Below are positions 3,549-63,830 of a DNA stretch of 64,000 nucleotides, piece after piece. Source of the stretch: a virus. The stretch lies in IMG/VR virus record IMGVR_UViG_3300045988_112440. One strand, written 5' to 3'. The notes beneath the pieces are model-generated. The model was not told the DNA's origin. It made no database searches and saw nothing but the letters and a program-made list of their open reading frames with translations. How positions within the stretch are numbered: the stretch's first letter is position 1; the number at the start of each line of letters is the position of its first letter. The position numbers and the translations under genes are program-made.

Positions 3549-3770
3549 ATGTGGGATTTAATTGAAAATGAATATTCTAAAAAATATGGAATTGGGTGCG
3601 CAACCTTTTTTCGTGACAAACAATTAAAAACAGCAATGGTTATGTATAAATATAATGGCCGTAGCGTTATGTTTTGCTATTCCGAGTACGATAATAAGAT
3701 TCTATCTGATGGTGATAAAGACGAAATTGAGATGACAATCAAAAAGAAACTCAACTTTTGGAAGGATTAA
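3549..3770 (+). CDS. MWDL-family protein, copy 1
   Basis: N-terminus MWDLIENEYSKKYGIGCA..VMYK is shared with the next copies. Confidence 0.65.
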   Translation: MWDLIENEYSKKYGIGCATFFRDKQLKTAMVMYKYNGRSVMFCYSEYDNKILSDGDKDEIEMTIKKKLNFWKD

Positions 3771-3772
3771 CT

Positions 3773-4009
3773 ATGTGGGATTTAATGGGTAACAATTATT
3801 CAGAAGTATACGGTATTGGATATGCTTTACTGAATGGAATTTCAGCTGGGTTTTATGTGAGTGTCATGTACAAGGACCTTGGAGATGAAATTCACTTCTA
3901 TTATCTTGATAATGCTCCTTACGGAGAACTTGATGATAATACCAAAAATAAAATTGAGGATATTATCCGTGATGACCTCAATAAGCGTCATATTTTTGGG
4001 GAGGACTGA
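3773..4009 (+). CDS. MWDL-family protein, copy 2
   Basis: MWDLMGNNYSEVYGIGYA..VMYK. Confidence 0.65.
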   Translation: MWDLMGNNYSEVYGIGYALLNGISAGFYVSVMYKDLGDEIHFYYLDNAPYGELDDNTKNKIEDIIRDDLNKRHIFGED

Positions 4010-4011
4010 TT

Positions 4012-4275
4012 ATGTGGGATTTAATAATAAATAATTACCACGAAGAAGATGGAACAGGTTGCGCCTTGATGTTCAACACAAGTGATAGGTGTTATCTTGA
4101 TGTTATGTACAAGTGTAGGCCGTTACACAATTCAATTCGTGTTTTTTATTCTCTTAATATTTCAGAGAATGAAAAAGAGAATATCGAAGAAGCACTTGTA
4201 AAAGAACTGAGAAACAATGGAGTTTTAAGGAGCGATGATTATGTGGGACCTGAGGGAAGTTCACGCTTGTTTTGA
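4012..4275 (+). CDS. MWDL-family protein, copy 3
   Basis: MWDLIINNYHEEDGTGCA..VMYK. Confidence 0.65.
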   Translation: MWDLIINNYHEEDGTGCALMFNTSDRCYLDVMYKCRPLHNSIRVFYSLNISENEKENIEEALVKELRNNGVLRSDDYVGPEGSSRLF

Positions 4276-11609: not shown

Positions 11610-11834
11610 ATGATGAAATATGGAAACATAACGTGTAAACGATGTGGGGCTACGTGGTATGGGCCAAAGTGTGGAAAGCTTTATTGTGATAATTGCAGAA
11701 GGATTGTGGATAGAGAAAAAGATATTAGATGTAAAAATAAAAAGAAACACAAACCGACATTTGTTGAAATTACAAGAATGGCAGATGCAGAGGGACTGTC
11801 CTATGGCAAGTATTGTTTAAAATATGGAATCTAA
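11610..11834 (+). CDS. zinc-ribbon small protein
   Basis: CKRCG..x..CDNC pair. Confidence 0.55.
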   Translation: MMKYGNITCKRCGATWYGPKCGKLYCDNCRRIVDREKDIRCKNKKKHKPTFVEITRMADAEGLSYGKYCLKYGI

Positions 11835-11847
11835 AGGAGACGCAAAT

Positions 11848-12693
11848 ATGAACGCAGTATCTGAAAAGAACGAAAATAACGCAGTTGAGTTTAATCCGCC
11901 AAAGGTTGATCCTGCTCCCAAAGTGAAACATAACCAGGCGAAGAACTATAGTATCAAACGCAAGGAAGCTTGTAATGGAACGGTGCAGCCTATTAAAGAT
12001 GTAGAGGATATTAAACGAATTTCGGAATATTTTTGGAATCGTGGGATGTACCGTGATTGGTGTTTGTTTAATGTTGGTGTATGTACTGGTTTTCGTGCAA
12101 GCGATTTGCTTCGTTTTAAGGTTTCAGATGTTACAACGCAGAGGGTAAATGGAAAGTTGCAAGTAAATGCAAATGCAAAAATACGAATGAAGGAAAAGAA
12201 GACTGGAAAATACCGTATTGTTTTTCTTCCAGAATCTGCTTTGGAAGTGATTTCTACTTATATCAATAAAGTTAAGCTCCATTATGACGATTGGCTTTTC
12301 CCGTCATGTAAAGGCAGCTCTCGCAATTCACTGAGGAGCACAGGTGGGACATCAATTAGTAAAAAGACTGGAATTATGTATACACACGAGGCAAATCCAA
12401 AGGTATCCGGGGAGCCGCTTGATGTGGATAGTTTTGGACGAATTATGAAAAAGGTTCAAAAGGATATGGCTCTTCCATATAATCTTGGAACACATAGTTG
12501 CCGTAAGACATTCGGCTATCAGTTTATGGTACAGCACCGTGATGATGTTATGGCTCTGGCCTGGCTTCAGCACGCTTTGAATCATAGTAGTCAGGCAATC
12601 ACTCTTCATTATATTGGTCTTGATTCAGAAGTGGATGAGAGATATTACTCTGGAATCAATTATGGTGTGAATACTCATAGTGAAAACTCTTGA
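11848..12693 (+). CDS. tyrosine recombinase (catalytic residues intact)
   Basis: TGFRASDLL (Arg), HSCRKTFGY (HxxR) and LNHSSQAITLHYIG (His..Tyr). Confidence 0.8.
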   Translation: MNAVSEKNENNAVEFNPPKVDPAPKVKHNQAKNYSIKRKEACNGTVQPIKDVEDIKRISEYFWNRGMYRDWCLFNVGVCTGFRASDLLRFKVSDVTTQRVNGKLQVNANAKIRMKEKKTGKYRIVFLPESALEVISTYINKVKLHYDDWLFPSCKGSSRNSLRSTGGTSISKKTGIMYTHEANPKVSGEPLDVDSFGRIMKKVQKDMALPYNLGTHSCRKTFGYQFMVQHRDDVMALAWLQHALNHSSQAITLHYIGLDSEVDERYYSGINYGVNTHSENS

Positions 12694-12701
12694 GGTGTGT
12701 T

Positions 12702-13382
12702 ATGGCTGATACTTATATTAAAATCTGGGATACTTATGAGAGCTACTTTGAACCACTTAGTGCTGCTGAGGTGGGGCGTCTGGTATTGGCGATGATGAAA
12801 TATAAATCGTCTGGAACGGAGCCTGAACTCAACGGAAATGAGCGGTATGTGTGGCCTGCTATTAAGAGAGATTTAATTAAAGATGCCGAATACATCGAAG
12901 GTAAGCGCATTTCTGGAAAAGCTGGAGGTGAAAGCAAGCGTAAGCAAAACAAAGCAAATGCAAGCAAAACAAAGCTAGAAAAAGAAAAAGAGAAAGAAAA
13001 AGATAAGATATCGTCTTCGTCTAGTGATAAGACGACAACGACGAAATCTATCGAGGATGTCTTTCGAGATGATATTGGGAAGCTTGGTGCTACTGGTCAA
13101 AAGGCTTTAGCAAAATATGTTGAGCGCATGGGTGACGAACTTGTGCTTGCTGTGATTGGTAAGTGTTCTGATCTCGGCGGTAGCACATGGGCTTATGTGC
13201 GAAAAGCTCTGGACGAAGCAGAATCTCTTGGTTGTAAAACTGCTGATGATTATCGCCGGGCTTGTCCGATAGGGAATGGTCGTAATCTTAGAGTGAGTAG
13301 GGATACTCAATGCGGAACCGATTGGCTAAAAAACGCAACCTTGGATAAAAATCTTCGCAGAATGAAAATGATAAAAGAGTGA
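12702..13382 (+). CDS. DnaD-domain-like replication/primosome protein
   Basis: C-terminal LVLAVIGKCSDLGGSTWAYVRKALDEAESLGCKTADDY resembles the DnaD/DnaB_2 fold signature; central KEKEKEK linker. Confidence 0.5.
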   Translation: MADTYIKIWDTYESYFEPLSAAEVGRLVLAMMKYKSSGTEPELNGNERYVWPAIKRDLIKDAEYIEGKRISGKAGGESKRKQNKANASKTKLEKEKEKEKDKISSSSSDKTTTTKSIEDVFRDDIGKLGATGQKALAKYVERMGDELVLAVIGKCSDLGGSTWAYVRKALDEAESLGCKTADDYRRACPIGNGRNLRVSRDTQCGTDWLKNATLDKNLRRMKMIKE

Positions 13383-16765: not shown

Positions 16766-17542
16766 ATGCCGAGAAGGAAAACAGTAGAAGCACTGCAATT
16801 AACGCCGAAAGAAATAGCTCGTAAGTCGCCTACTTTTATGGAGCTTCCTGAGATGGTAAGCCGTGCTGGTGAGCCTACATACTATTATGATGTGGGAGAT
16901 GCTGTAGAGATTGGTCATCTTAGCGGATGCAAGATTGATGAAGTCTGCGACGGTGGTTTATATTACGGTGTTTCTTACGATGATGGATATAGGTACGAAA
17001 CGTGGTTTAACATTCGTAAAGCAGGTATTGAGAAGAAATCTCAACTGACAGAGAATGATGACATTAAGATTTCCTACTCAAATGTGACCATCGAATCCTT
17101 GCTCCACAGGTATTACTTCTTTGGCATCAACTGCAATCCGAGTTATCAACGTGGATCTGTGTGGACAGATGATGACCGTAAACTGCTTCTTGAAACAATT
17201 TTTATGGGTGGTGAAATTGGTCGATTCGTTTTAAAAAATATTGATATGGACGAATGGAATGAAAATCAGAATTACCTTTATGAAATCATTGATGGAAAGC
17301 AGAGGCTTCTGACGCTGACTGCATTCTACGAAGATCGTTTCCGTTACAAAGGATATCTGTATAGTGAACTCTCTAAAAAGGACAAGAGAACATTTGATGA
17401 GGCCGTTGTTGCTATTGCAGATTTGCGGAATCTTTCTAAGAAAGATATGTTGCGTGTATTCTTGTTACTGAATCGTGGCGGCAAGGTTGTTACCAACGAC
17501 GTACTTAATCATGCAAAAGAGTTACTAGATGAAATGGAGTGA
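16766..17542 (+). CDS. DUF262 (ParB/GmrSD N-terminal-like) domain protein
   Basis: YQRGSVW..LLETIFMGGEIGRFVL..EIIDGKQRLLTL matches the DUF262 signature; has an extra ~100-aa N-terminal domain and no DUF1524/HNH part. Confidence 0.7.
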   Translation: MPRRKTVEALQLTPKEIARKSPTFMELPEMVSRAGEPTYYYDVGDAVEIGHLSGCKIDEVCDGGLYYGVSYDDGYRYETWFNIRKAGIEKKSQLTENDDIKISYSNVTIESLLHRYYFFGINCNPSYQRGSVWTDDDRKLLLETIFMGGEIGRFVLKNIDMDEWNENQNYLYEIIDGKQRLLTLTAFYEDRFRYKGYLYSELSKKDKRTFDEAVVAIADLRNLSKKDMLRVFLLLNRGGKVVTNDVLNHAKELLDEME

Positions 17543-18081: not shown

Positions 18082-18834
18082 ATGACAAGAAATGAATTGC
18101 TTGGAGCATTATGCTTTCCAGAATATAATTTTCTTCGGGAGAATGAGCATCTTGGCAAGCATATGATGTTCGTAACGGTCGGTGGCAGTCATGCTTATGG
18201 AACAAATGTTGAGGGTTCAGATCTCGACATCCGAGGGGTGGCATTAAATTCAAGAGAAGACCTTCTTGGTCTTGGTGAGTTTGAACATTATGTGGATACT
18301 CAAACTGATACTACAATCTACAGCTTTAATAAGGCTGTGAAGCTAATGTGCAGTGGAAATCCTAATATGCTGGAGCAGCTAGGGAACGCCGATGAACTCG
18401 TTATTAGCTATAATCCAATGACAAAGTTACTTATGGATAATAAAAAGCTGTTCCTGTCGAGGCGTGTAATCTATTCGTTTGGCGGTTTTGCAGGTAAGCT
18501 GATTCAGAAGGCTGATACGCTGGACAAAGATCCAATTTATCATGGCTCAAAGAAAATGCACAAGACGGTAATGAATGTAGTTCGTGTATACCTGATGCTC
18601 TTTGACATCTTAGAAAAAGGTGAAATTAAAACCTATCGAGACAACGATCATAACTTCCTGACGCAGCTTCGCAACGGTGAATATGATTACAAAGAGATTC
18701 GTCAGCAACTGATTCCGGCCTATGAAAGCAGATTGTCAGTGGACAAGAGTGAGACTTACCTGCCGGACAATGTTGATTGGAAGCGGGTCAACGAGCTTGT
18801 GATGACTGTAAATGAGGAGTCTTTAAAGATTTGA
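18082..18834 (+). CDS. Pol-beta-superfamily nucleotidyltransferase, RlaP-like
   Basis: VGGSHAYGTNVEGSDLDIRGV is the GS..(D/E)xD NTase signature in its RlaP-type context. Confidence 0.7.
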   Translation: MTRNELLGALCFPEYNFLRENEHLGKHMMFVTVGGSHAYGTNVEGSDLDIRGVALNSREDLLGLGEFEHYVDTQTDTTIYSFNKAVKLMCSGNPNMLEQLGNADELVISYNPMTKLLMDNKKLFLSRRVIYSFGGFAGKLIQKADTLDKDPIYHGSKKMHKTVMNVVRVYLMLFDILEKGEIKTYRDNDHNFLTQLRNGEYDYKEIRQQLIPAYESRLSVDKSETYLPDNVDWKRVNELVMTVNEESLKI

Positions 18835-19736: not shown

Positions 19737-19764
19737 TTGACTAAAACAAAAGGCTGTGTATAAT
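19737..19764 (+). promoter_or_regulatory. sigma70-like promoter (TTGACT-16-TATAAT)
   Basis: Lies in the intergenic gap after the hydrolase gene. Confidence 0.5.
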
Positions 19765-19808
19765 ATATCTTGAAAGTTGTTTGTGTGAGCGGAAGGCGGT
19801 TATTCTTG

Positions 19809-20135
19809 ATGAGCGATAGAAAGGTTTTGAAAGTTATACGGGTTGATGATTTTTTAAAGTACATAAGAAAAAAGCGAGTGTGGGTCTGCTTTGTTTGTAA
19901 TGGTGTGGATATTCACATGATCTGCAAAAAGATTGACGACATTGGCGTAGAGACGGGTGGGATTGTTAATGGCGTGGGGTTCTTCGGAAATGAGAGTCAC
20001 ATCGAGTTGCGACAAAAATGCCATGAAGTAAGGAGAATTGAACTTAGGTCTGGCTGTGCAGAGAAAGCGTATGAGATGATCTTCGATAATACTAGTGTGT
20101 TCGTATCAGAGAATCCTGAGTTGTACGGGCACTAA
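19809..20135 (+). CDS. hypothetical protein
   Basis: ATG 19809 has a weak RBS; the track ORF starts at TTG 19770. Confidence 0.45.
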   Translation: MSDRKVLKVIRVDDFLKYIRKKRVWVCFVCNGVDIHMICKKIDDIGVETGGIVNGVGFFGNESHIELRQKCHEVRRIELRSGCAEKAYEMIFDNTSVFVSENPELYGH

Positions 20136-20154
20136 AAATATTTTCAAAAACCTC

Positions 20155-20183
20155 TTGACTTCTGTGATTGTATCCTGTATAAT
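20155..20183 (+). promoter_or_regulatory. consensus sigma70 promoter (TTGACT-17-TATAAT)
   Basis: Exact hexamers. The spacer and -10 region overlap an inverted copy of the 21-nt element. An 8-bp leader hairpin sits at 20182-20206. Confidence 0.7.
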
Positions 20184-20190
20184 GTAGCTA
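20170..20190 (-). promoter_or_regulatory. 21-nt conserved element, inverted copy
   Basis: + strand GTATCCTGTATAATGTAGCTA is the reverse complement of TAGCTACATTATACAGGATAC. Confidence 0.7.
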
Positions 20191-20226
20191 TGGAACGGAG
20201 CTACATCATTGTAGAGGAGAATGACT

Positions 20227-20646
20227 ATGGATAACAATATTGACCCAAAGGTCGGAGAGGTTTGGTTGGTTGATCTATCCAATGCGACAGGTCATCAGCA
20301 GCGCGGCATTCGACCGTTCGTTGTGACAAGTAACAACAAGCGTAACTTCTTCAGCCCAACAATCAAAGGGAATCCGTTATCTTCAAGAATATATAAGCGT
20401 TCTCCGGTTCATGTTCTACTCTCAAAGGAAGACTGCGAGTTCCTAGAGGTTGATAGTATCGTTCTCTGCGAAGAGACTGATACACTTAACAAAGGACAGT
20501 TCATCAAGAAACTTGGTGTCTTGTCGGAGCGTCAGATGAATATGATTGCAATGGCAAGATGCAAAGATGAACCATTTTTGCTCGCAGCATTTCTGAGCGG
20601 TGTACAACATACTATGGAATTTCAGAATTTTGCCGCATTTGCTTGA
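20227..20646 (+). CDS. mazF: MazF/PemK-family endoribonuclease toxin-like protein
   Basis: VGEVWLVDLSNATGHQQRGIRPFVVTSNN...SPVHVLL fits the PemK signature; GAGGAG RBS 7 nt before ATG 20227. Confidence 0.75.
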   Translation: MDNNIDPKVGEVWLVDLSNATGHQQRGIRPFVVTSNNKRNFFSPTIKGNPLSSRIYKRSPVHVLLSKEDCEFLEVDSIVLCEETDTLNKGQFIKKLGVLSERQMNMIAMARCKDEPFLLAAFLSGVQHTMEFQNFAAFA

Positions 20647-20697
20647 TTTGTTCTCAGGTTTAATGGTACACTACATAATAAGAAGGAGTGTGCCACT

Positions 20698-21624
20698 ATG
20701 CTTACTGAAGAAAAAATCAAATCTTTTGCCGAAAAGTATTCTGATAGAAGCGGTGAGTTTGTTATATCGACGCTTAACCATGTTATGGATTACGAGGCCG
20801 AGCGTGGATATGAGTTGTTTGACTTCACAAAAGATGATTTTGTAAGGATGTTTGCTAAATACAATTGGGTGAACTCAAGTCGGTCGTTCAGAAATGTAAA
20901 GTCGATAATTACAGGGTACATCAAAAGTGATGATCGAGCGAGTATGTATGACTTAGCTGAATTCTCGGAGAGCGATGTGAGTTCAGACAATATGTACGAG
21001 GACAAGTATTTTGCATCAGTTGATGAGTTTGTTGATTTCTTGGACAAGTATGAAGAACCATATCAGATTCGTATGAACGTGATTGCCGTACTGTACTGGA
21101 TTGGACTTACTTCTGAAGAGGTTTCTAATCTGACAATCAACAATGTTGATTTTGAATCATGTACTGTTCTGAATAGGACCGGTGTTGACGCAAGACTGAT
21201 GAATATCATTAAGCAGTGTTATGAAATGAAACAATACGATGCTCCAAATATGGGAGGATACAGAACGTTTTATGTCATAAATGGTGATTACATCCTTCGC
21301 AAAACAGAGGATAGAACTGGTGCAGACAGTGATTCAAGAATGTCTACAAACACAATTCATAGTTATTTCACGCGCTTGAATGATATTCTCGAAAGAAGAT
21401 ATCATTCAAAGGCTTTAGACCGAAGACATCTGACTAGAAACGGCGAGTATGTCAAGGTTTATAACTACTGTAAAACTCATCCAGAATTTAATCTTGCAGA
21501 ACTTAGTTTCGGAAATGGTAAAGATCCTCTTGCGGACATTATCGGAAGAAAGTGCAGCAAGGTTGCCTACATTAGTTTCCGGCAAGGATACAAGGGCTGG
21601 ATCGAATACTTCCACAAAAATTAA
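20698..21624 (+). CDS. tyrosine-recombinase-like protein lacking the catalytic Arg (MrpR/YopR-like repressor candidate)
   Basis: SAM-like N-terminal domain. Has YWIGLTSEEVSNLTINNVDF where recombinases have G.R.SE; no clear HxxR..Y. Confidence 0.5.
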   Translation: MLTEEKIKSFAEKYSDRSGEFVISTLNHVMDYEAERGYELFDFTKDDFVRMFAKYNWVNSSRSFRNVKSIITGYIKSDDRASMYDLAEFSESDVSSDNMYEDKYFASVDEFVDFLDKYEEPYQIRMNVIAVLYWIGLTSEEVSNLTINNVDFESCTVLNRTGVDARLMNIIKQCYEMKQYDAPNMGGYRTFYVINGDYILRKTEDRTGADSDSRMSTNTIHSYFTRLNDILERRYHSKALDRRHLTRNGEYVKVYNYCKTHPEFNLAELSFGNGKDPLADIIGRKCSKVAYISFRQGYKGWIEYFHKN

Positions 21625-21627
21625 AAA

Positions 21628-21652
21628 CAGGGGGCTTCGGCCCCTTGATTTT
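21628..21652 (+). terminator. intrinsic terminator
   Basis: 8-bp stem CAGGGGGC-TTCG-GCCCCTTG followed by ATTTT. Confidence 0.75.
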
Positions 21653-21659
21653 AACATTG

Positions 21660-21680
21660 TAACTATATAACACAGGATAC
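21660..21680 (+). promoter_or_regulatory. 21-nt conserved element, forward copy
   Basis: TAACTATATAACACAGGATAC, with 21 nt between it and the Pnkp ATG. Confidence 0.7.
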
Positions 21681-21701: not shown

Positions 21702-23915
21702 ATGAGAACGCTTTTGCTGTTCCGTGGAGCACCAGGTTGTGGGAAGTCCACCTATATTAAAGAGCATAATCTTGAACAGTACGTATTGAGTGCTGATACA
21801 CTTCGCCTTATGTGCCAGAGCGCACAGGAAACACCTGCCGGGCAGATGGAGATTTCTCCGCAGAATGATGATGTTGTATGGGAGATGCTTTTCAAACTGC
21901 TTGAGGTGCGTATGAGTCATGGCGAGTTTACCGTGATTGATGCAACGAATTCCAAGACGGTCGAAATGAATCGTTATAAGAATCTGGCAAAACAGTATCG
22001 TTATCGGATGTATGTTATTGACATGACTGACCTTCCGATTGAGGAATGCAAACGAAGAAACGCTCAGAGAGAATGGCTGAAGCGAGTTCCTGAAGCGGCC
22101 ATTGATAAGATGTACGCTCGGTTTGCTACTCAAAAAGTTCCTTCTGGCGTGACAGTTCTTCCTTCTACTACAGATGTGATGTCCGATTTGAATTACTGTC
22201 CGAATGACTTCAACCAGTGGAAGAAGATCCATGTCATCGGTGATGTTCATGGCTGTTATACTTGTTTAAGTGAATACCTTGGCGAGATGAAGGACGACGA
22301 ACTTTATATTTTCGTTGGTGATTATCTCAATCGTGGCATCGAAAACGTTGAGGTATTCAAGTTCTTGTGTGATGTTGTAAATAACAACCGCAAGAATGTG
22401 ATCCTTTTGGAAGGGAATCACGAGCGTTGGCTGAACAAGTGGGGGCATGATGAACCGGTTCAGAGTGAAGAGTTTGCAAACTACACTCGTCCGCAGCTTT
22501 TTAAAGCTGGTATTGATAAGAACACTGCTCGTAAGATCTATTCCAGAGTCGGCCAGTGTGCCTACTTTGAGTATGATGGTAAGCGGTATTTCGTGAGCCA
22601 CGGTGGTTTGAGTTATCTGCCTTATTTTCTTCCTTTCGTATCTGCTGACCAGATGATCAAAGGTGTAGGTCGCTATCCTGATATGCTAACCGTGGCTGAG
22701 TCTTGGGAAAAATCGATGCCTGATAGCTATATTCAGATATTCGGTCATCGAAATGTGCAGGATGTTCCTATTGATATGGGGCATCGGTGCTACAACCTCG
22801 AAGGAAAAATCGAGTTTGGTGGATATCTCCGTTGCGTGGAACTTGAACACGGTCAGCCCGTCAAGTGTGTAGAAACCAAGAATGATGTATTCCGAAAAGA
22901 GGAACCAAAGACCGAATCTGCCGTTGAAATGAAAACTGAGTTCGATAACGCAGAACTTGTTAGTAAGATGCGTCAAAGCAAATATGTGTTTGAGAAGCGA
23001 TTCGGAGATATTTCTTCTTTCAACTTCTCTCGTGAAGCATTTTATAAGAAGCATTGGGATGAGGTTTCTACCAAAGCAAGGGGATTGTTCATTAACACAA
23101 AGACGAATAAGATTGTAGCTCGAAGCTATGATAAGTTCTTTGCGGTTGATGAGCGGAATGAAACGAGAATTGGAAACCTACAGAACACTTTGAAGTTCCC
23201 GGTGACTGCGTATCTAAAAGAGAACGGATTTCTTGGTATCATTTCGTATGATGCAGAACAGGATGGCCTGTTCATTGCAAGTAAATCCACTCCTGAAGGG
23301 CCTTTTGCAGATATGTTCCGAAAGATTCTCATGGATACGACTTCTGATGAAGATCGTAAGAATCTGAAAGAAGTTGCAAAAGAGAATGGCTCCATCATCT
23401 TCGAGGTGATTGATCCTGTGAATGATGCTCATATCATTGAATACAAGAAACCACACATTGTTTTGCTGGATATTATTGCGAATGATATGAACTTCAGTGT
23501 GATGGATTACGATGATCTGAAGCGTGTTGCTGAAAAGTGTCATTTGCAGATTAAGGAGAAGGTTAAGACTTTTGAGAACTGGAGTAAATTTTATCCTTGG
23601 TACGAGGAAGTCATGAACGAGAACTATCTGCATCATGGCTTTGAACACGTTGAAGGCTTTGTTTTGCGAGACAGCAACAATTTTATGTTTAAGATGAAGC
23701 TTCCTTATTATAAGCACTGGAAGTTCTTGCGTGGTGTCATGCAGAGTGTCCAGAAGCGTGGTTATTACGAAAACACTGCCAAGCTATTTACTGCTGAGGA
23801 TAACCTGTTCTATGGTTGGATGCGTGAGCAACGAGAGAAAGACCAGGAGTCTTTTTGCAAGAAGGGTATTATTCAGCTGCGGAATGAGTTCTACGCAAGT
23901 CAGCAGAAGAGCTGA
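21702..23915 (+). CDS. pnkp: trifunctional polynucleotide kinase-phosphatase-ligase (bacterial Pnkp-type RNA repair enzyme)
   Basis: N-terminal P-loop GAPGCGKS; central metallophosphoesterase GDVHGC/GDYLNRG/EGNHE; C-terminal adenylyltransferase with the KENGF lysine motif (near 23216). Confidence 0.85.
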   Translation: MRTLLLFRGAPGCGKSTYIKEHNLEQYVLSADTLRLMCQSAQETPAGQMEISPQNDDVVWEMLFKLLEVRMSHGEFTVIDATNSKTVEMNRYKNLAKQYRYRMYVIDMTDLPIEECKRRNAQREWLKRVPEAAIDKMYARFATQKVPSGVTVLPSTTDVMSDLNYCPNDFNQWKKIHVIGDVHGCYTCLSEYLGEMKDDELYIFVGDYLNRGIENVEVFKFLCDVVNNNRKNVILLEGNHERWLNKWGHDEPVQSEEFANYTRPQLFKAGIDKNTARKIYSRVGQCAYFEYDGKRYFVSHGGLSYLPYFLPFVSADQMIKGVGRYPDMLTVAESWEKSMPDSYIQIFGHRNVQDVPIDMGHRCYNLEGKIEFGGYLRCVELEHGQPVKCVETKNDVFRKEEPKTESAVEMKTEFDNAELVSKMRQSKYVFEKRFGDISSFNFSREAFYKKHWDEVSTKARGLFINTKTNKIVARSYDKFFAVDERNETRIGNLQNTLKFPVTAYLKENGFLGIISYDAEQDGLFIASKSTPEGPFADMFRKILMDTTSDEDRKNLKEVAKENGSIIFEVIDPVNDAHIIEYKKPHIVLLDIIANDMNFSVMDYDDLKRVAEKCHLQIKEKVKTFENWSKFYPWYEEVMNENYLHHGFEHVEGFVLRDSNNFMFKMKLPYYKHWKFLRGVMQSVQKRGYYENTAKLFTAEDNLFYGWMREQREKDQESFCKKGIIQLRNEFYASQQKS

Positions 23916-24030: not shown

Positions 24031-24115
24031 GGGGATATGGTGAAATTGGCAGCCACGCTTGATTCAAACTCAAGTGTCGAAAGACGTATCGGTTCAAATC
24101 CGATTATCCCTACCA
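24031..24115 (+). tRNA. tRNA-Leu(CAA), type II, CCA encoded
   Basis: Acceptor GGGGATA/TATCCCT; anticodon loop TTCAAAC; long variable arm GTCGAAAGAC; T arm ATCGG-TTCAAAT-CCGAT. Confidence 0.9.
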
Positions 24116-24312
24116 TGAAGATCAGTTGTTCTGGCTAGATCGGGGATTGGCCGTTCATTGGCAAACGACAGGTATCATACCGGTAAAGGATGCCGAGCCA
24201 AATAGGAAGGGGAATAAGGTGCAAGCCGAGTAGCTGTCGGACGAATACCCTTCAGGTAGCCAGTAAACCGGAATGTAAAACAAATGTTGGCTGTTTCTGA
24301 TCTTCTATATAA
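24116..24312 (+). ncRNA. structured inter-tRNA spacer, candidate ncRNA (class unknown)
   Basis: Nested helices 24117-24125/24297-24305 (9 bp), 24126-24130/24279-24283, 24131-24137/24257-24263 (7 bp) and 24166-24171/24234-24239 (6 bp). Confidence 0.4.
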
Positions 24313-24395
24313 GCTACCGTGGTGGAATGGCAGACACCGGAGACTTAAAATCTCCTGTCGGAAACGACGTGCCCGTTCAAGTCGGGTCGGTAGCA
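24313..24395 (+). tRNA. tRNA-Leu(TAA), type II
   Basis: Acceptor GCTACCG/CGGTAGC; anticodon loop CTTAAAA; long variable arm; no encoded CCA. Confidence 0.9.
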
Positions 24396-24402
24396 TTGAT
24401 AT

Positions 24403-24478
24403 CCGGGTGTAGCTCAGTTGGAAGAGCGCGTGCTTTGGGAGCATGAGGCCGCAGGATCGTGACCTGTCACTCGGACCA
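24403..24478 (+). tRNA. tRNA-Pro(TGG), CCA encoded, atypical T-loop
   Basis: Acceptor CCGGGTG/CACTCGG; anticodon loop TTTGGGA; T-loop is ATCGTGA instead of TTCRANN. Confidence 0.8.
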
Positions 24479-24507
24479 ACCCGAAAGGGCATGTAGAATT
24501 TTTCATT

Positions 24508-24566
24508 CACATTATTCCCAGCTCTCTGGAAACGGAGCAGTGTGACGTAGTAAGCTGGGCATATGC
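24508..24566 (+). ncRNA. tRNA-leader hairpin module, copy A
   Basis: CACATTATT then CCCAGCT(24517-24523)...AGCTGGG(24553-24559). It ends 7 nt before tRNA-Gln. Confidence 0.45.
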
Positions 24567-24637
24567 TGCGCCATCGCCAAGCGGTAAGGCAGAGGACTTT
24601 GACTCCTCCATCACAGGTTCGACCCCTGTTGGCGCAA
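24567..24637 (+). tRNA. tRNA-Gln(TTG)
   Basis: Acceptor TGCGCCA/TGGCGCA; anticodon loop CTTTGAC; T arm ACAGG-TTCGACC-CCTGT. Confidence 0.85.
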
Positions 24638-24642
24638 TTTAT

Positions 24643-24724
24643 GCGGATATGGTGGAATGGCAGACACGCCAGACTTAGGATCTGGTGCTTCGGCGTGTGG
24701 GTTCGATGCCCACTATCCGCACCA
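24643..24724 (+). tRNA. tRNA-Leu(TAG), type II, CCA encoded
   Basis: Acceptor GCGGATA/TATCCGC; anticodon loop CTTAGGA; long variable arm. Confidence 0.9.
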
Positions 24725-24770
24725 CGATCATAGAATGGTTGCGTACCGTTTGTTGATCTCCTTTGACTGC

Positions 24771-24830
24771 CACTATTATTCCCAGCTCACCAGTGATGGT
24801 GCAGTAGTGCTTTGTAAGCTGGGTGATTAT
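24771..24830 (+). ncRNA. tRNA-leader hairpin module, copy B
   Basis: CACTATTATT then CCCAGCT(24781-24787)...AGCTGGG(24817-24823), with inner hairpin CACCA-GTGA-TGGTG. It ends 7 nt before tRNA-Gly. Confidence 0.45.
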
Positions 24831-24905
24831 GCAGCGGTCGTACAATGGTTAGTATATCAGCCTTCCAAGCTGAGGATGAGGTTTCGACTACCTTTCGCTG
24901 CTCCA
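24831..24905 (+). tRNA. tRNA-Gly(TCC), CCA encoded
   Basis: Acceptor GCAGCGG/TCGCTGC; anticodon loop CTTCCAA; T loop TTCGACT. Confidence 0.85.
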
Positions 24906-24996
24906 ATCTCGTATGGGTAGGATTTTTAGCGGTCAAATCCGGCTGCGCCTGTGCGAGATACCACCCCGAAAGGGGAGAGATATAGGAAATGTGCAT

Positions 24997-25092
24997 CACT
25001 GTTATTCCTTCCTCGTCTATATGATATAGATGCAATAGTGTTTATAAGGAAGGTTCCCAGTTGAATAGTTGCAGCTGTTTGACTGGGAATAT
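24997..25092 (+). ncRNA. tRNA-leader hairpin module, copy C (two stacked hairpins)
   Basis: CACTGTTATTCC, then CCTTCCT(25007-13)/AGGAAGG(25047-53), then TTCCCAGT(25054-61)/ACTGGGAA(25082-89). It ends 3 nt before tRNA-Met. Confidence 0.4.
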
Positions 25093-25169
25093 GGGATAGT
25101 AGCTCAGTTGGTCAGAGCTGGCGGCTCATAACCGCTTGGTCGCGAGTTCAAATCTTGCCTGTCCCACCA
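25093..25169 (+). tRNA. tRNA-Met(CAT) elongator type (or Ile2 if lysidine-modified), CCA encoded
   Basis: Acceptor GGGATAG/CTGTCCC; anticodon loop CTCATAA; T loop TTCAAAT; pair 1-72 is G-C, so it is not an initiator. Confidence 0.85.
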
Positions 25170-25263: not shown

Positions 25264-25284
25264 TAGCTATGTAACACAGGATAC
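25264..25284 (+). promoter_or_regulatory. 21-nt conserved element, forward copy
   Basis: TAGCTATGTAACACAGGATAC, with 17 nt between it and the MTase GTG. Confidence 0.7.
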
Positions 25285-28858: not shown

Positions 28859-28879
28859 TAACTAAGTGACACAGGATAC
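28859..28879 (+). promoter_or_regulatory. 21-nt conserved element, forward copy
   Basis: TAACTAAGTGACACAGGATAC, with 36 nt between it and ATG 28916. Confidence 0.65.
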
Positions 28880-41421: not shown

Positions 41422-42765
41422 ATGGATGCAGCAATCAATGAGGCCGAAAATGCGCTTGGCATCGAGTATACCGAAGAACAGAGAGATGCCATTAAAAAGG
41501 TATGCTCTAGCAACGTCTGTATTTTAACAGGCTACGGCGGAACTGGCAAAAGTACCGTTGTCGCTGGTGTCTTAAAAGTTCTTCGTGGTAAGTCTTTTGC
41601 ACAGACTGCACTCTCTGGCCGTGCTGCCGCTCGTATGCAGGAGATTACTGGTCAGGATGGAAAGACGATTCATCGTCTCCTTGGATATGACATCGAGAAC
41701 GGTGGGTTTGTTCACGATAAGGACAATCCTCTGGATGAGGACATCATCATTCTGGATGAGACCTCCATGGTTGGTGCTCAATTGTTTTACGATTTGATTC
41801 AGGCAATCGAAACCGGCAAGCGATTCATCATGATTGGTGATGACGGTCAGCTTGAGAGTATCGGTATGTGTAACATCTTCAAGGATATGCTTGCATCTAA
41901 GGTTGTTCCTGTGGCTCGTTTGACTAAGATCCATCGTCAGGCAGCCAAGTCTGCAATTATCACGGAGAGCATTAAGGTTCGTAACGCTACGCAATTGGTG
42001 CCTTATGGCTGGGCTGGCAATGAGATTCGTGGTGAACTTCGTGATTTGGAGCTTGATATCTATAAAGACGCAAGTGAGTCATTCAACCACATTATCAATC
42101 AGTACCGTACCTTATATAATAAGGTAGGGAATGATAGTGCGAAGATTCAGATTGTGCTTCCACAGAAGCTGCGTGGTAGTATCTGTACCTATGAAGTCAA
42201 TAATGCTATTCAGGAAATTGTGAATCCGAGTCGTGGTCAAGCAGAAGCAAAGGTCACAATCTATGGTGATGGCAAGGATAGAGCGTACACTCTGCGTGAG
42301 GGTGATCAGGTCATTATCAACAAGAACAACTATGAGCTTCACACATACAATCTCAAGACAAAGAAAAAAGAAGAGAAGTGTCCGGTGTTCAACGGAAACC
42401 GTGGCATTATCCGAAAGATTGAGAATAGTTTTATCCTGGTTGATTTTGACCAGTGGGGAACGATCTTCATTCCACATTACTTTGGTGGGAATAACGTCTG
42501 GGCAACACTTGAACTTGCTTATGCTTTAAGTTGTCATAAGTTGCAGGGCAGTGAGGCTCCGTATGTGATTGTTGGCATGGACAACTCTGCGTACCTGATG
42601 CTGACGAGAGAATGGCTCTATACGGCCATCACTCGTGCCAAGAAGTATTGTGTGATTTGCGCCGAAACTCATGCTCTTGATCGGGCTGTAAAGACTTCGA
42701 GAGTTCCATATAAGCGGACGTTCTTGAAGGAATTTTTACGGAAAGAATTTTCAGAAAAGCATTGA
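41422..42765 (+). CDS. recD2: RecD2-like helicase, SF1 ATPase core (same frame as 40435..41349; open from 41350)
   Basis: Walker A GYGGTGKST, DETSMV, SF1 C-terminal motifs HKLQGSE and YTAITRAK; no RBS before ATG 41422. Confidence 0.8.
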   Translation: MDAAINEAENALGIEYTEEQRDAIKKVCSSNVCILTGYGGTGKSTVVAGVLKVLRGKSFAQTALSGRAAARMQEITGQDGKTIHRLLGYDIENGGFVHDKDNPLDEDIIILDETSMVGAQLFYDLIQAIETGKRFIMIGDDGQLESIGMCNIFKDMLASKVVPVARLTKIHRQAAKSAIITESIKVRNATQLVPYGWAGNEIRGELRDLELDIYKDASESFNHIINQYRTLYNKVGNDSAKIQIVLPQKLRGSICTYEVNNAIQEIVNPSRGQAEAKVTIYGDGKDRAYTLREGDQVIINKNNYELHTYNLKTKKKEEKCPVFNGNRGIIRKIENSFILVDFDQWGTIFIPHYFGGNNVWATLELAYALSCHKLQGSEAPYVIVGMDNSAYLMLTREWLYTAITRAKKYCVICAETHALDRAVKTSRVPYKRTFLKEFLRKEFSEKH

Positions 42766-42790
42766 CAATCATATTGGTGTCCTGTATAAT
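42762..42790 (+). promoter_or_regulatory. consensus sigma70 promoter (TTGACA-17-TATAAT)
   Basis: Exact hexamers. The -35 overlaps the recD2 stop codon. The spacer and -10 overlap an inverted copy of the 21-nt element. Confidence 0.7.
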
Positions 42791-42797
42791 GTAGCTA
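42777..42797 (-). promoter_or_regulatory. 21-nt conserved element, inverted copy
   Basis: + strand GTGTCCTGTATAATGTAGCTA. Confidence 0.65.
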
Positions 42798-42835
42798 TAA
42801 GAAGTCTCTATCCCAGAGGCTTAAAATTCTCTCTT

Positions 42836-42856
42836 TAACTATATAATACAGGATAC
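42836..42856 (+). promoter_or_regulatory. 21-nt conserved element, forward copy
   Basis: TAACTATATAATACAGGATAC. Confidence 0.7.
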
Positions 42857-42859
42857 GGG

Positions 42860-42899
42860 AAAGAAATGGCTTGCTCGTAACGACAAGCCTTTCTTTATT
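42860..42899 (+). terminator. long hairpin / intrinsic-terminator-like element between two forward copies of the 21-nt element
   Basis: AAAGAAA-GGCTTG-TCG / CGA-CAAGCC-TTTCTTT (about 16 bp, one bulge), followed by ATT. Confidence 0.5.
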
Positions 42900-42904
42900 G
42901 GCTA

Positions 42905-42925
42905 TAACTATATAATACAGGATAC
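42905..42925 (+). promoter_or_regulatory. 21-nt conserved element, forward copy
   Basis: TAACTATATAATACAGGATAC, with 13 nt between it and the ligase ATG. Confidence 0.7.
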
Positions 42926-42938
42926 GCAAGGAGGCTTT

Positions 42939-44270
42939 ATGACAGATAAAGAGCTCATAGGTAAGCTTGATGCGATGGTTAAGGCATTGCAGAAAGCAAA
43001 GAAGAAGACGGACAAAACCCGCATTTTGCTGGATGCACGAAAGGATTTTGGCGACGAAGATAATGAGCTGATGTTTTTCTTCAGATTTTTGCTTGACCCA
43101 GCAATTGTGACTGGACTGTCTGACGCAAAGATCAACAAGAAGGTGGCGGCAAAGCCTGATTTGGATTTTGAGCATTACAGTTGTGGATGTCTTTATCTAA
43201 TGGGTAAAGGTCACAACACTGGCTCTGATGCATCCATCGCAACAATCCAAAATTACTTACATAAAAACCATGAGTACGAAGAGTTCCTGAAGCGACTGTT
43301 CACTAAGAACCTGCCGATTGGAGTTGAAGCAGCTACCATCAATAAGGTGTACGGCGAAGAGATTATTCCTGTCTGGGAGGTTCAGCAGGGATATCCGATT
43401 GACAAGGTAAAGCTGAAAGATGGTATTTGGTTTAGTTTGAGCCAGAAGATGAATGGCAACCGGGGCACTATGCATAGAGGTGAAATTATTTCTCGTCAAG
43501 CACAGAAGTTTAAGGGACTCGACCATATAAAGAATGACCTGCTTTCTCTATACGATGGAGACGCCTCCAGGCGAGATGCGTGGGTGTTTGATGGCGAACT
43601 TATCTATAAGAATCCAGAAGGAATGTCAGATGGAGAGGCTTTTCGTTATGGCACTGGCCTACTTAATTCTGACAACAAGGACAAGGCAGGAATCAAATTT
43701 GTGATTTTTGATGTGATTCCTGTTGTAGAGTTCGACCGTGGAAAGTGTACTATCCCATATAAAATTCGCCGTATTTGGTTAAATTGTCTTCGTGCAGAGA
43801 TTACTCGCAAGCACCTTGAAAATATTGAGATTGTTCCCATGGTCTATGAAGGAAAAGACCAAAGCGTGATTCCAAAGTGGCTTGATTATGCTGTCGAGCA
43901 CGATTGGGAAGGTCTTATGTTGAACACGGACGTCCCTTATCGCCGGGCTCGTCACAACGGATGTCTCAAAATAAAGCGATTCTACACTGTTGATCTACGA
44001 ATCACAGCGATTGAGGAAGGTCAGAACCGTCTGGCTGGTACGATGGGCGCTCTTGTTGTTGACTACAAGGGCAACGAGCTTCGTGTCGGATCTGGTTTTG
44101 ATGATGTTACGAGAGTTGCTGTGTGGGCGAATCCAGATGACTACATTGGCAAAATTGTTGAGTGTAAATACAAAGAGGTCACGATGGACAAAAAGACTGG
44201 CCTTGAGTCTCTGCAGTTCCCGACGTTTGTACGATTCCGAAACGACAAGAACGAAGTGAGTTACGGATAA
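42939..44270 (+). CDS. lig: ATP-dependent DNA ligase
   Basis: Motif I SQKMNGNRG (KxNG variant of KxDG), motif III WVFDGELIY, motif IV FVIFDV, motif V EGLMLN..LKIKR. Confidence 0.8.
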   Translation: MTDKELIGKLDAMVKALQKAKKKTDKTRILLDARKDFGDEDNELMFFFRFLLDPAIVTGLSDAKINKKVAAKPDLDFEHYSCGCLYLMGKGHNTGSDASIATIQNYLHKNHEYEEFLKRLFTKNLPIGVEAATINKVYGEEIIPVWEVQQGYPIDKVKLKDGIWFSLSQKMNGNRGTMHRGEIISRQAQKFKGLDHIKNDLLSLYDGDASRRDAWVFDGELIYKNPEGMSDGEAFRYGTGLLNSDNKDKAGIKFVIFDVIPVVEFDRGKCTIPYKIRRIWLNCLRAEITRKHLENIEIVPMVYEGKDQSVIPKWLDYAVEHDWEGLMLNTDVPYRRARHNGCLKIKRFYTVDLRITAIEEGQNRLAGTMGALVVDYKGNELRVGSGFDDVTRVAVWANPDDYIGKIVECKYKEVTMDKKTGLESLQFPTFVRFRNDKNEVSYG

Positions 44271-61586: not shown

Positions 61587-62414
61587 ATGATTATTGATTG
61601 TAAATCTATTGCACAAGATATCAAAAATAAAATCAAGAATATTATCGCAGAAGATGACTATGCTCCTATTTTACATATTTATCAAGTAGGGGACAACCCT
61701 GCATCCAACGCTTATATTAAAGGTAAATTACGTGACTGTGAAGAGGTGGGAATCGAAGCAAACCTTATCAAACTGCCAGAAAATATTACGGAGGATGAAT
61801 TAAATAATAGGATACTGGAAGATTATAATTGGGAAGATGTGGACGGTATCATTGTCCAGCTCCCGCTGCCAAAACATATCGATCCTAAAAATATTTGTAT
61901 TCCAGATGAACTTGATGTTGATGGCTTTAATTCCACATCCAAATTTCAGCCGTGCACTCCGCTTGGCGTTATGAAGATTTTTGATTCCATCGGTTACAAT
62001 CTGGATGGCAAGAATGTGCTTGTATGTGGTCAGTCTGATATTGTGGGTCGTCCACTGGTCGATATGCTGATTAAGCGGCACTGTAATGTGATCTCTGTGA
62101 ATAGTACAGGGAGCTACATGAAGAATACTGCTTACGTTACAAAACTAGCAAATGTTGTCATCTCTGCGGTTGGAAAACGCAATTTTATTTCTCATATAGA
62201 TCTATTCAACACAGACATCTGCATTGACGTTGGCATTAACTACGACGAGAATGGCAAGCAACATGGAGACTGTGCTGATGAAGTTTATAAAATGAATAAC
62301 ATTAAAGTAACCCCACGTATCGGTGGCGTTGGTCTGATGACCAGGGCGATGCTGCTTTACAATGTATGTGTGGCAAAGTATGGGGAAGAGAAGATGGAGG
62401 ATGTGATTGTATGA
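61587..62414 (+). CDS. folD: bifunctional methylenetetrahydrofolate dehydrogenase/cyclohydrolase
   Basis: VGDNPASNAYIKGKLRDCEEVGI, GIIVQLPLPKHID, GQSDIVGRPL and PRIGGVGLMT. Confidence 0.9.
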   Translation: MIIDCKSIAQDIKNKIKNIIAEDDYAPILHIYQVGDNPASNAYIKGKLRDCEEVGIEANLIKLPENITEDELNNRILEDYNWEDVDGIIVQLPLPKHIDPKNICIPDELDVDGFNSTSKFQPCTPLGVMKIFDSIGYNLDGKNVLVCGQSDIVGRPLVDMLIKRHCNVISVNSTGSYMKNTAYVTKLANVVISAVGKRNFISHIDLFNTDICIDVGINYDENGKQHGDCADEVYKMNNIKVTPRIGGVGLMTRAMLLYNVCVAKYGEEKMEDVIV

Positions 62415-62604
62415 AAGAAGTCCCAATCTGGGAAAAGCCACCCTGACAATAGAAGAAGCTGCAGCATATTCGAATATTGGTCAATGCAAACTTCGAGAAA
62501 TGGCGGAAGAACAAAACTGTCCATTTGTGCTTTTTGTAGGCCGAAAACGTCTTATTAAACGTAAAGCTCTTGAAAAGTACATAGATCAGTCTTATTCGAT
62601 TTGA
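62407..62604 (+). CDS. xis: excisionase-family HTH DNA-binding protein (TTG start)
   Basis: LTIEEAAAYSNIGQCKLREMA..FVLFVGRKRLIKRKALEKYI; GGAGG 6 nt before the TTG. Confidence 0.7.
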   Translation: MYERSPNLGKATLTIEEAAAYSNIGQCKLREMAEEQNCPFVLFVGRKRLIKRKALEKYIDQSYSI

Positions 62605-62675
62605 AATTGGAGCTTTGGTGTGATATACTTATGGTGTCACATCAAGGCTCTTTATAATAATGTAAGGAGTCTATT

Positions 62676-63830
62676 ATGGAAAGACGTAAAGATAACAAAG
62701 GTAGAGTTTTAAAAGAAGGTGAGAGCCAAAGAAAAGATGGCCTGTATCAATACCGCTGGACAGATAAATTTGGAAAACGGCATACTATGTACGCAAATGA
62801 TTTAAAAGCACTTCGAGATAAAAAGAAACAAGCTTTAGAGTTTGACGTGGAACAAGCCGATGTGATAATAACAATGTATGAGTTGATAAAACGATATGAA
62901 ACTATTCACAAAAAATCACTTAAAGAAACTTCTGCTTATACACGAGGGCAATATCTTAGAAAAATAAAAAACGATTCATTTGGAGAAAAAAATATATCAT
63001 CAATATCGACATTAGATGCGAAAGAATGGTTCTTATCTCTTAACGAAAATGGAATGAGCCAATGTGCTATCGGAAATATGAAAAATATAATTTCTCCTGC
63101 TTTTCAAATGGCCGTTGACGAGAATATGATTTCTTATAATCCGTTTTCATTTAGCTTGAATAAACTTATAAAGCCTACGAAAAAGAAAAAAATTCTATTG
63201 TCAGAAGAACAGTATAAAAAACTTATTGACTTTTCTAAAACGAGTAAAGTCTATAAGAAATATACAGATATGCTTATTATACTGCATGAAACAGGAGTTC
63301 GTGTTGGTGAGTTATGCGGAATAACAATTGATGACGTTGATTTAAAAAATAATTGTTTAAACATAACACATCAAATATCATATGTCCCAGGAATTGGAAC
63401 ATTTGTGCAAGAGCCAAAAAGTGAAAGCGGAAAAAGGAAAATCCCCCTTACTGATAGCGCAAGAGAAAGTTTCGAAAGGCTTATTTGTCAAAGAGAAGCA
63501 TTAAATGATCCTGGTCCAGAGATGGATGGATATACGTCGTTCCTATTTTTGAAAAGAGGAACCCTTTCTCCAAAAGACAAAGATTCCGTCAAGTCAATTA
63601 TTGAAAGTATGATTGGAGCATACCATAGAGAAACAGGCGACACTCTACCAAAAACGACACCACATACTTTTCGGCACATGTTCTGCACAAGACTGATTTC
63701 TGCTGGTATGAACGTTAAATCTGTTCAGTATTTAATGGGTCACGCTAATATACGAATGACGTTGGATGTATATGCAGAGTACAATCTGCCTGTTACAGTT
63801 GACGATTTTTTAAGAATAGCAAATGGCTGA
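62676..63830 (+). CDS. int: tyrosine integrase, Tn916/phage type
   Basis: N-terminal arm-binding-like RKDGLYQYRWTDKFGKRH; ETGVRVGEL, HTFRHMFCT and LMGHANIRMTLDVYAE. Confidence 0.9.
   Translation: MERRKDNKGRVLKEGESQRKDGLYQYRWTDKFGKRHTMYANDLKALRDKKKQALEFDVEQADVIITMYELIKRYETIHKKSLKETSAYTRGQYLRKIKNDSFGEKNISSISTLDAKEWFLSLNENGMSQCAIGNMKNIISPAFQMAVDENMISYNPFSFSLNKLIKPTKKKKILLSEEQYKKLIDFSKTSKVYKKYTDMLIILHETGVRVGELCGITIDDVDLKNNCLNITHQISYVPGIGTFVQEPKSESGKRKIPLTDSARESFERLICQREALNDPGPEMDGYTSFLFLKRGTLSPKDKDSVKSIIESMIGAYHRETGDTLPKTTPHTFRHMFCTRLISAGMNVKSVQYLMGHANIRMTLDVYAEYNLPVTVDDFLRIANG

Follow-up and report, generated by a model that had tools for sequence, protein, structure and literature searches.

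How is lysogeny controlled in a large temperate phage of the human gut that encodes, next to each other in one operon, a MazF-like ribonuclease and a protein with the fold of a tyrosine recombinase? The question is raised by a locus in the virus record IMGVR_UViG_3300045988_112440, of which a stretch of 64 kb (hereafter the window), about half of a phage of ~135 kb, was analysed. The gene at issue (20698–21624, + strand) encodes a protein of 308 residues, is preceded by the mazF gene, and lies in an operon that is flanked on both sides by copies of an asymmetric 21-nt element. An earlier note on this DNA had proposed from the letters alone that the operon controls lysogeny and that the 308-residue protein is its repressor. 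Profile comparisons and a predicted structure now make it very likely that this protein is a distant member of the fold and family of MrpR/YopR/SroF, integrase-fold master repressors that were described between 2023 and 2025 and only in Bacillus phages using arbitrium signalling. It is also likely to bind the 21-bp element, and the full master-repressor model, in which the region from about 19737 to 21645 would be the immunity (lysogeny-control) cassette of a ~135-kb SPbeta-like temperate phage, is favoured with more reserve.

To which family does the 308-residue protein belong? A word-indexed search returned 77 homologues, all at least 72% identical, most of which carry a weak precomputed match to PF22823 (MrpR_C_cat). 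The profile of this close family (alignment A1) detects among 1.8 billion representative proteins a set of 320–340-residue proteins that align over their full length (E 1e-25 to 1e-17). In the wider combined alignment (A2, 33 sequences) 25 members match the Pfam family MrpR_N_CB (PF22822; best E 1.9e-17), and the A2 profile finds YopR/MrpR of SPbeta among the PDB sequences with an E value of 1.4e-12 over nearly the whole chain and aligns with it by hhalign over 270 columns (97.4% probability, E 1.5e-11). A word-indexed protein search with A2 added just two further distant proteins. Structure prediction points in the same direction. A first prediction using 22 close homologues was poor in its C-terminal half (predicted local distance difference test, pLDDT, 63.6), and the model from the deeper alignment reached a pLDDT of 90.1; the two gave the same ranking of PDB structures. 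With the latter model SroF, YopR and MrpR take the first seven places among the Foldseek matches in the PDB (E 1.6e-8 to 1e-6). The best of these is phi3T SroF bound to DNA (E 1.6e-8, template modelling score 0.60), the others include the SroF-Sar complex, YopR and MrpR, and right after them follows lambda Int as top-ranked catalytic recombinase (E 4.8e-4). The architecture of the SPbeta master repressor, which the earlier note had suspected, is thus recovered by both approaches, and the comparison with YopR and with catalytic recombinases that it had proposed favours an MrpR-type fold in which the first catalytic arginine (Arg-I) is missing. The protein shares with the repressors of SPbeta and phi3T (PDB 8A0A, 8BJ6, 9RD5; PF22822/PF22823) a core-binding and a catalytic-like domain and has a similar length (308 versus 325 residues), but it is only about 13–18% identical to MrpR and SroF and its own Pfam matches stay below threshold. 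With the catalytic recombinases lambda Int, Cre, XerA and Tn1549 Int it has in common the two-domain fold, a weak similarity in the Arg-I helix and a C-terminal tyrosine; as structural matches, however, they fall behind SroF and MrpR by a factor of more than 1000.

Could the protein nevertheless be catalytically active? As had been claimed before, a threonine occupies the place of the first catalytic arginine: Thr138 (in WIGLTSEEV) aligns with Arg-I of Tn1549 Int and also with Arg-I of both genuine integrases encoded in the window. The accompanying statement that neither an HxxR nor a tyrosine motif is visible had to be withdrawn. The sequence H244-L-T-R247 has HxxR spacing and, in a family alignment including YopR, R247 aligns with R258 of MrpR/YopR, E141 with E144 and Y298 with Y304, the Tyr298 column being occupied by tyrosine in 34 of 34 sequences. 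An equivalent of the third-position histidine or tryptophan (His/Trp-III) was not found in the same alignment. Since Arg-I is absent and His/Trp-III was not found, the recombinase active site is, as read from these alignments, incomplete. Gly136 is nearly invariant in the family and corresponds to G136 of MrpR, the residue altered in the heat-sensitive c2 mutant, and both G136 and Y304 are important for stability and DNA binding of MrpR (PMC10516654). The 308-residue protein therefore resembles MrpR in having lost Arg-I and in having kept the equivalents of Gly136 and Tyr304, and it differs from MrpR by its HxxR-like HLTR motif. For such comparisons it matters that the deposited SPBc2 record (L199/AF020713, 81280–82257) has a glutamate at position 136 of YopR (LLFEEVSG), which is the heat-sensitive c2 allele G136E (PMC10516654), when this record serves as reference.

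How is the gene embedded? Matches to the sigma-A consensus at 11 or more of the 12 positions occur only three times in the 64 kb, at 19737, 20155 and 42762, and two of these lie in this region. The promoter recognised before, TTGACT-17-TATAAT (P2, 20155–20183, +), is present and kept in relatives. Downstream of it follow the gene for a PemK/MazF-family endoribonuclease (20227–20646, +), a gap of 51 nt, the gene of the 308-residue candidate master repressor with an AAGGAG ribosome-binding site, and an intrinsic terminator (21629–21645, +), the hairpin GGGGGCUUCGGCCCC with a predicted stability of -18.2 kcal/mol (z -4.3), followed by a run of U. The open reading frame of mazF opens at 20221; translation probably starts at ATG 20227, giving 139 residues, as this start fits the position of the ribosome-binding site and gene calls in relatives agree. 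All parts of the operon that had been listed, including the strong terminator, are thus in place, and only its beginning was probably set too late. A second sigma-A-type promoter (P1, 19737–19764, +; TTGACT-16-TATAAT), which carries no copy of the element, precedes a small open reading frame, orf108 (19809–20135, +), and no terminator was detected in the interval between orf108 and mazF. Because the strong P1 drives orf108 and no terminator precedes mazF, the transcription unit probably starts upstream of P2, at 19737. The co-direction of the repressor gene with the lytic genes had been called unusual, which does not hold in view of SPbeta: the yopMNOPQR operon has the same arrangement, with yopR as the last gene of a co-directional operon and a stem-loop after it. 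What is new relative to the known repressor operons is the fixed linkage to MazF and not the direction of transcription.

The putative operator is the element TARCTAnnTnAYACAGGAYAC, of which there are seven copies in the window where 0.06 would be expected by chance. All of them are intergenic, the 9-nt core ACAGGAYAC does not occur outside them on either strand of the window, and 80 related phages keep the element at corresponding positions. The element has neither dyad symmetry nor a core-type architecture. Two copies are inverted, each lying over the -10 box of a nearly perfect sigma-A promoter. One of them (20170–20190, -), whose overlap with the operon promoter the earlier note had pointed out, contains the -10 hexamer of P2 and covers the likely transcription start, making it a candidate autoregulatory operator; the other (42777–42797, -) lies over the -10 box of a perfect sigma-A promoter, TTGACA-17-TATAAT (42762–42790, +), 5' of the DNA ligase gene. 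The five direct copies are oriented with transcription and stand 2–37 nt ahead of ribosome-binding sites. One of them (21660–21680, +) stands past the operon terminator and before the Pnkp/RNA-ligase gene with its ribosome-binding site, a second (25264–25284, +) is just 5' of a C5 DNA methylase gene, and a third (28859–28879, +) lies between the YorF-like and AAA_24 genes at the head of the replication module. The remaining two precede the DNA ligase gene, one (42836–42856, +) with 38 nt between it and the inverted copy upstream, the other (42905–42925, +) 2 nt before the ribosome-binding site. The hairpins ahead of direct copies have predicted stabilities of -18.2 (the operon terminator), -19.9 (ahead of 25264) and -16.6 kcal/mol (ahead of 42905). 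When the direct copies were checked as sigma-A promoters, no -35 box was found at usable spacing and the centre departed from the usual -10 pattern, about one third of the copies having G at position 2 and about half having C at position 6.

The region 42742–42940 is a compact control region in its own right, in which the perfect promoter with its inverted element is followed by the two direct copies at distances of 59 and 69 nt and two hairpins (-8.8 and -16.6 kcal/mol) separate the copies; it might serve as an attenuator or give rise to a short RNA. In relatives, beyond the region covered by the window, divergent pairs of elements occur 38–40 nt apart (L103 7045–7124 and 14142–14222; also L099 and L084), one flanking a sigma-A promoter at a gene divergence and another a bidirectional terminator hairpin. 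One of these relatives also encodes a 930-residue protein (L103 1340–4132, -) with a match to Pfam RdRP (E 9e-15), the family of YonO-type single-chain RNA polymerases, with an element copy (L103 4163–4183) 30 nt 5' of the gene. In an AT-rich phage (L197) that encodes a distant homologue of the 308-residue protein (P0114), a search for repeated elements yielded nothing above background.

Does the element have anything to do with the 308-residue protein? The strongest indication comes from three contigs (L205–L207), reached by a protein search with an intermediate homologue (P0079), that have the same gene order of small open reading frame, PemK gene, a 309-residue gene and RNA ligase. Between these contigs and the window the MazF proteins are 95% identical and the integrase-fold proteins (L205 10001–10930) 36%, and in L205 the terminator hairpin is nearly identical. 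At exactly the two homologous positions flanking the operon the element of the window is replaced in L205–L207 by another one, AGTATAGTAWACAGAATTT (type B). In L205 its inverted copy lies over the -10 box of P2's counterpart, the operon promoter, and its direct copy just past the terminator. A sliding-window comparison of the two loci reveals conserved islands of 80–97% identity (P1 and mazF) alternating with diverged patches of 25–55%, and the diverged patches are orf108 with the operator and the repressor gene. A phage with a 72%-identical repressor, in turn, retains the original element. Such a pattern is typical of two immunity types in which repressor and operators are matched. The idea of autoregulation is strengthened because the repressor allele and the element change together at both operon-flanking sites. 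Searches for the P0079 locus in IMG/VR and in metagenome contigs returned nothing, and a scan of IMG/VR for the type-B element gave just unrelated matches within coding sequence.

How would such a repressor act? SroF, a monomeric clamp around its site, reads 24 of the 26 bp, and binding of the 21-bp element by the 308-residue protein is likely because of this precedent. By analogy to SroF the protein would wrap as a monomer around the asymmetric element. Bound at 20170–20190 it would cover the -10 box of its own promoter, resulting in negative autoregulation, and at 42777–42797 it would likewise occlude the -10 box of the promoter 5' of the DNA ligase gene. Direct copies head the units for RNA repair, the methylase and replication and, in relatives, the YonO-like unit; with the protein bound they would serve as operators or as roadblocks. 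In this way they would keep the lytic genes silent in the lysogen in the manner of the stoperators of mycobacteriophage L5, which act in an orientation-dependent way (PMC9283540), with MazF being co-expressed as a lysogeny-linked effector. The roadblock reading is preferred in view of the fact that the direct copies follow stable hairpins without a usable -35 or a proper -10 box. Nevertheless, a block of read-through transcription at the direct copies is the weakest step of the model, its main rival being a promoter function of the element for another factor, and would be an analogy to roadblocks of the stoperator type, which are so far known only for the unrelated mycobacteriophage repressor.

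The distribution of sites in SPbeta offers the closest parallel. Chromatin affinity purification sequencing of SPbeta MrpR located about 10 dispersed sites of the SPbeta repeated element (SPBRE), including those at the promoters of yopM (its own operon), of yonP (just 5' of yonO) and of yorE (the replication head). A scan of SPBc2 found five sites of the type AATATGTATATA 5' of yonT, yopM, yopV, yorE and yonP, genes that the MrpR study lists; all five are directed with the gene and near the ribosome-binding site. The gut phage resembles SPbeta in having a long, asymmetric, dispersed intergenic element at the repressor's own promoter, at the replication head and, in relatives, at the YonO-type unit, and furthermore in being a temperate phage of ~135 kb with YorF, AAA_24, DNA polymerase III alpha and YonO-like genes. 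On the other hand, its element is unrelated to SPBRE or to the phi3T box, the operon consists of orf108, mazF and the repressor gene and not of six genes as sroA-F, and no arbitrium genes or LexA box were seen in the window: LexA-box matches are at chance level and the open reading frames scanned in the 64 kb include no AimR-like gene. Repressors of this family are inactivated by a small cognate antirepressor, Sar, under the control of LexA, and in the window only the product of orf108 is a loose candidate for such a partner. Moreover, the host is an uncultured human-gut anaerobe and not a Bacillus, and the integrase is a tyrosine recombinase of the Tn916 type. In its logic only, the locus also recalls the repressor of L5 and other cluster A phages (PMC9283540), which binds as a monomer to multiple asymmetric sites that lie in promoters and short intergenic gaps and are oriented with transcription, and for which co-evolution of repressor alleles and sites leads to different immunity types. 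The L5 repressor has an unrelated fold (a helix-turn-helix and a second domain), however, and its sites are shorter (13 versus 21 bp) and present in more than 20 copies.

What is the role of MazF in this operon? The assignment itself, already made in the earlier note, is firm: the open reading frame matches PF02452 with an E value of 1.7e-19 and 70.5 bits where the cutoff is 23.1, PHROG annotates it as 'MazF-like growth inhibitor', and it aligns over 100 residues with the MazF proteins of Staphylococcus aureus and Bacillus subtilis, keeping the catalytic arginine of the GIRP motif. A serine sits at the position of what we take to be the catalytic threonine of B. subtilis MazF. In PADLOC and NCBIfam the matches of MazF and the repressor stayed below threshold. 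Among 80 relatives MazF is 96–100% identical and the repressor 84–99%, and all syntenic loci that were checked, among them 80 of the 80 IMG/VR loci tested, have mazF next to the repressor gene. Different from canonical type II mazEF modules, no adjacent gene encodes a MazE/AbrB-type antitoxin: scans with Pfam, PADLOC, NCBIfam and the PDB found no MazE-like open reading frame in or beside the operon. The product of orf108 matches no family or PDB entry and nothing in PADLOC or NCBIfam, and in the type-B locus its place is taken by an unrelated open reading frame of 105 residues (L205 9116–9433) that has no BLASTP similarity to it, with the promoter before it being conserved. As an allele-specific gene orf108 is a candidate for a repressor partner, for example an antirepressor.

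In phi3T a lysogeny-promoting phage protein releases MazF of the host, and the activity of MazF shifts the outcome toward lysogeny (PMC10769878). In SPbeta the repressor operon encodes the corresponding protein, YopM, which binds MazE. Given the phi3T protein that frees the host MazF and the location of yopM in the repressor operon, it is plausible that a phage-borne MazF beside the repressor represents an internalised version of the MazF circuit of arbitrium phages. In both settings a MazF-family RNase is wired to the neighbourhood of an SroF-type repressor (in arbitrium phages by way of phi3T AimX, YosL and phi3T_93/YopM; PMC10769878), but in the gut phage MazF is encoded by the phage itself directly 5' of the repressor, and no homologue of MazE, AimX or YosL is found. 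Carried further, one could picture a self-contained switch of three parts, with MazF as an effector that favours lysogeny or shuts the host down, the repressor maybe restraining MazF and the orf108 product as antirepressor or specificity partner, in addition to orientation-dependent roadblock sites; this elaborate version is doubtful. Equally speculative would be to see in this three-part switch the host-factor circuit of arbitrium brought inside the phage by analogy.

The operon is also surrounded by genes for RNA repair, an RlaP-type nucleotidyltransferase (18082–18834) and a kinase-phosphatase-RNA ligase fusion of 737 residues (21702–23915), and a cluster of seven tRNA genes lies nearby (24031–25169). 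Cleavage by MazF leaves RNA ends of the kind that such enzymes repair. A relationship between cutting by MazF and RNA repair is conceivable.

A number of observations weigh against the master-repressor model. The match of the 308-residue protein itself to MrpR_N_CB reaches only 21 bits, below the cutoff of 27. The A1 profile alone does not find YopR significantly (E 0.067), and because this shallow profile misses YopR, the homology is carried by the intermediate sequences. The alternative immunity type comprises so far three contigs of a single type, and orf108 is swapped along with the allele, which confounds the covariation and makes its product a possible (co-)specificity factor. A conventional repressor of the CI type may be encoded elsewhere in the ~135-kb phage, of which 64 kb were examined. 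Finally, the direct copies follow terminator hairpins without -35 and -10 boxes, and the element could be a promoter for another factor.

This last point can be developed into an explanation of its own, in which the element is a phage-specific promoter or unit signal read by the orf108 product, by an unseen activator or sigma-like factor or by a YonO-like polymerase, with the MrpR-like protein being an activator or unrelated to it. The space from the hairpins to the ribosome-binding sites is too short for a separate promoter, the orientation of the element tracks gene direction also at the divergent pairs of the relatives, these relatives do encode a YonO-like RNA polymerase, and orf108 and the element are exchanged together. 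Yet a copy precedes the gene of the RNA polymerase itself, which would need the host enzyme first, and YonO of SPbeta has a single late promoter, the early genes being transcribed by the host polymerase. The two conserved blocks of 6 and 9 nt within the 21 nt do not fit the spacing of a sigma-70-type promoter, the substitutions at positions 2 and 6 of the centre violate the rules for a -10 box, and transcription from the two inverted copies would enter coding sequence in antisense. An orientation that follows transcription is, moreover, shared by SPBRE sites and L5 stoperators, and homology to a known binder of dispersed asymmetric sites is the simpler account, so that a promoter function appears unlikely. 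Slightly less probable still is that mazF and the 308-residue gene form a toxin-antitoxin or abortive-infection module in reverse order, with the integrase-fold protein as an autoregulating antitoxin for prophage stabilisation or defence. It would explain why MazF has no MazE-like neighbour, why the two genes stay linked in all syntenic loci checked (the 80 of 80 in IMG/VR and others), and why MazF is more conserved than its neighbours, and type II toxin-antitoxin autoregulation typically works through an operator over the promoter. An antitoxin would, however, have no use for six more element sites ahead of lytic and replication units, identities of 95% for MazF and 36% for its partner are odd for a co-evolving pair, and distant MrpR-like genes, including yopR of SPbeta, have no MazF gene next to them. 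The roles of antitoxin and repressor are in any case mutually compatible.

By far the least probable is an active site-specific recombinase for which the elements are recombination sites and the operon an invertible cassette. Such a cassette would be bracketed by the copies at 20170 and 21660, which are inverted relative to each other in both immunity types, and the retention of Tyr298, H244xxR247 and Glu141 would make sense. Against this reading speak the missing Arg-I, the His/Trp-III residue that was not found, and an element devoid of dyad symmetry and of core-type architecture. The nearest structural relatives are repressors that do not recombine, MrpR showing no recombination (PMC10516654), and the phage has a complete integrase and an Xis of its own. 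The invertible cassette was rejected on the flank positions in 80 related contigs, which give no sign of inversion, the deleted form not having been looked for.

If the master-repressor model is correct, the locus suggests that the same type of repressor controls a very common family of ~135-kb human-gut prophages, and a recently discovered type of phage switch would thereby be extended well beyond Bacillus. What the locus adds is a distant MrpR/SroF member in an uncultured, widespread SPbeta-like gut prophage with an operator family of its own, and its operon is new in having MazF and an allele-specific small gene. The two apparent natural immunity types with matched repressor and operators provide a ready-made comparison for studying specificity, and the fixed link between a phage MazF and the repressor opens a route to asking whether MazF-type RNases are general in such switches.

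The phage itself exists as an integrated prophage. The window represents the half of a large temperate phage that holds its early and replication genes, with genes for DNA polymerase III alpha, a RecD-like helicase, primase, RecJ, DNA ligase, ThyX, an anaerobic NrdD and seven tRNAs, and a YorF-family gene precedes the AAA_24 gene as in SPbeta. At the prophage end (62407–63830, +) lie a Tn916-type Xis gene (62407–62604) and the gene of a catalytically complete tyrosine integrase (62676–63830) with the full R-(E/D)-K-H-R-(H/W)-Y set. Integration is seen in four contigs of 250–640 kb from different samples, where the identical integrase has ordinary chromosomal genes (ABC transporters, acyl-ACP thioesterase, IMPDH) after it at a distance of no more than ~240 nt; the prophage occupies the same chromosomal site in the four samples (L214–L217, 11156–21155), with the integrase beside the ABC-transporter genes. 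Searches of 50,697 annotated phage genomes at near-identity and at the protein level, and two scans of the bacterial genomes representing GTDB species, found no relative. The related viral contigs are mostly 110–140 kb long, and the repressor gene is found in more than 750 blocks of an assembly collection, in human-gut metagenomes.

Further genes were noted in passing. A second tyrosine-recombinase gene (289 residues, Phage_integrase, E 4e-16) and, after it, a DUF6291/DnaB_2-like gene form a pair (together 11824–13382) that is conserved in relatives; the window thus holds three integrase-fold genes, namely this recombinase, the MrpR-like gene and the integrase. For the 258-residue protein encoded at 16766–17542, a GmrSD_N domain is recognised along with similarity to the PADLOC model NsnA (E 6e-17), which may indicate a role in defence or counter-defence. 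In a relative, a ToxN toxin gene of a type III toxin-antitoxin system (L103 11067–11564, -; Pfam E 1e-35) lies to the left of the region covered by the window, and in another a 429-residue Cas12f1-like/TnpB-type gene (L213 12936–14225) is inserted between the RNA ligase and methylase genes. At 3549–4248 there are three to four tandem paralogous small genes, spaced about 230 nt apart and each starting with ATGTGGGATTTAAT.

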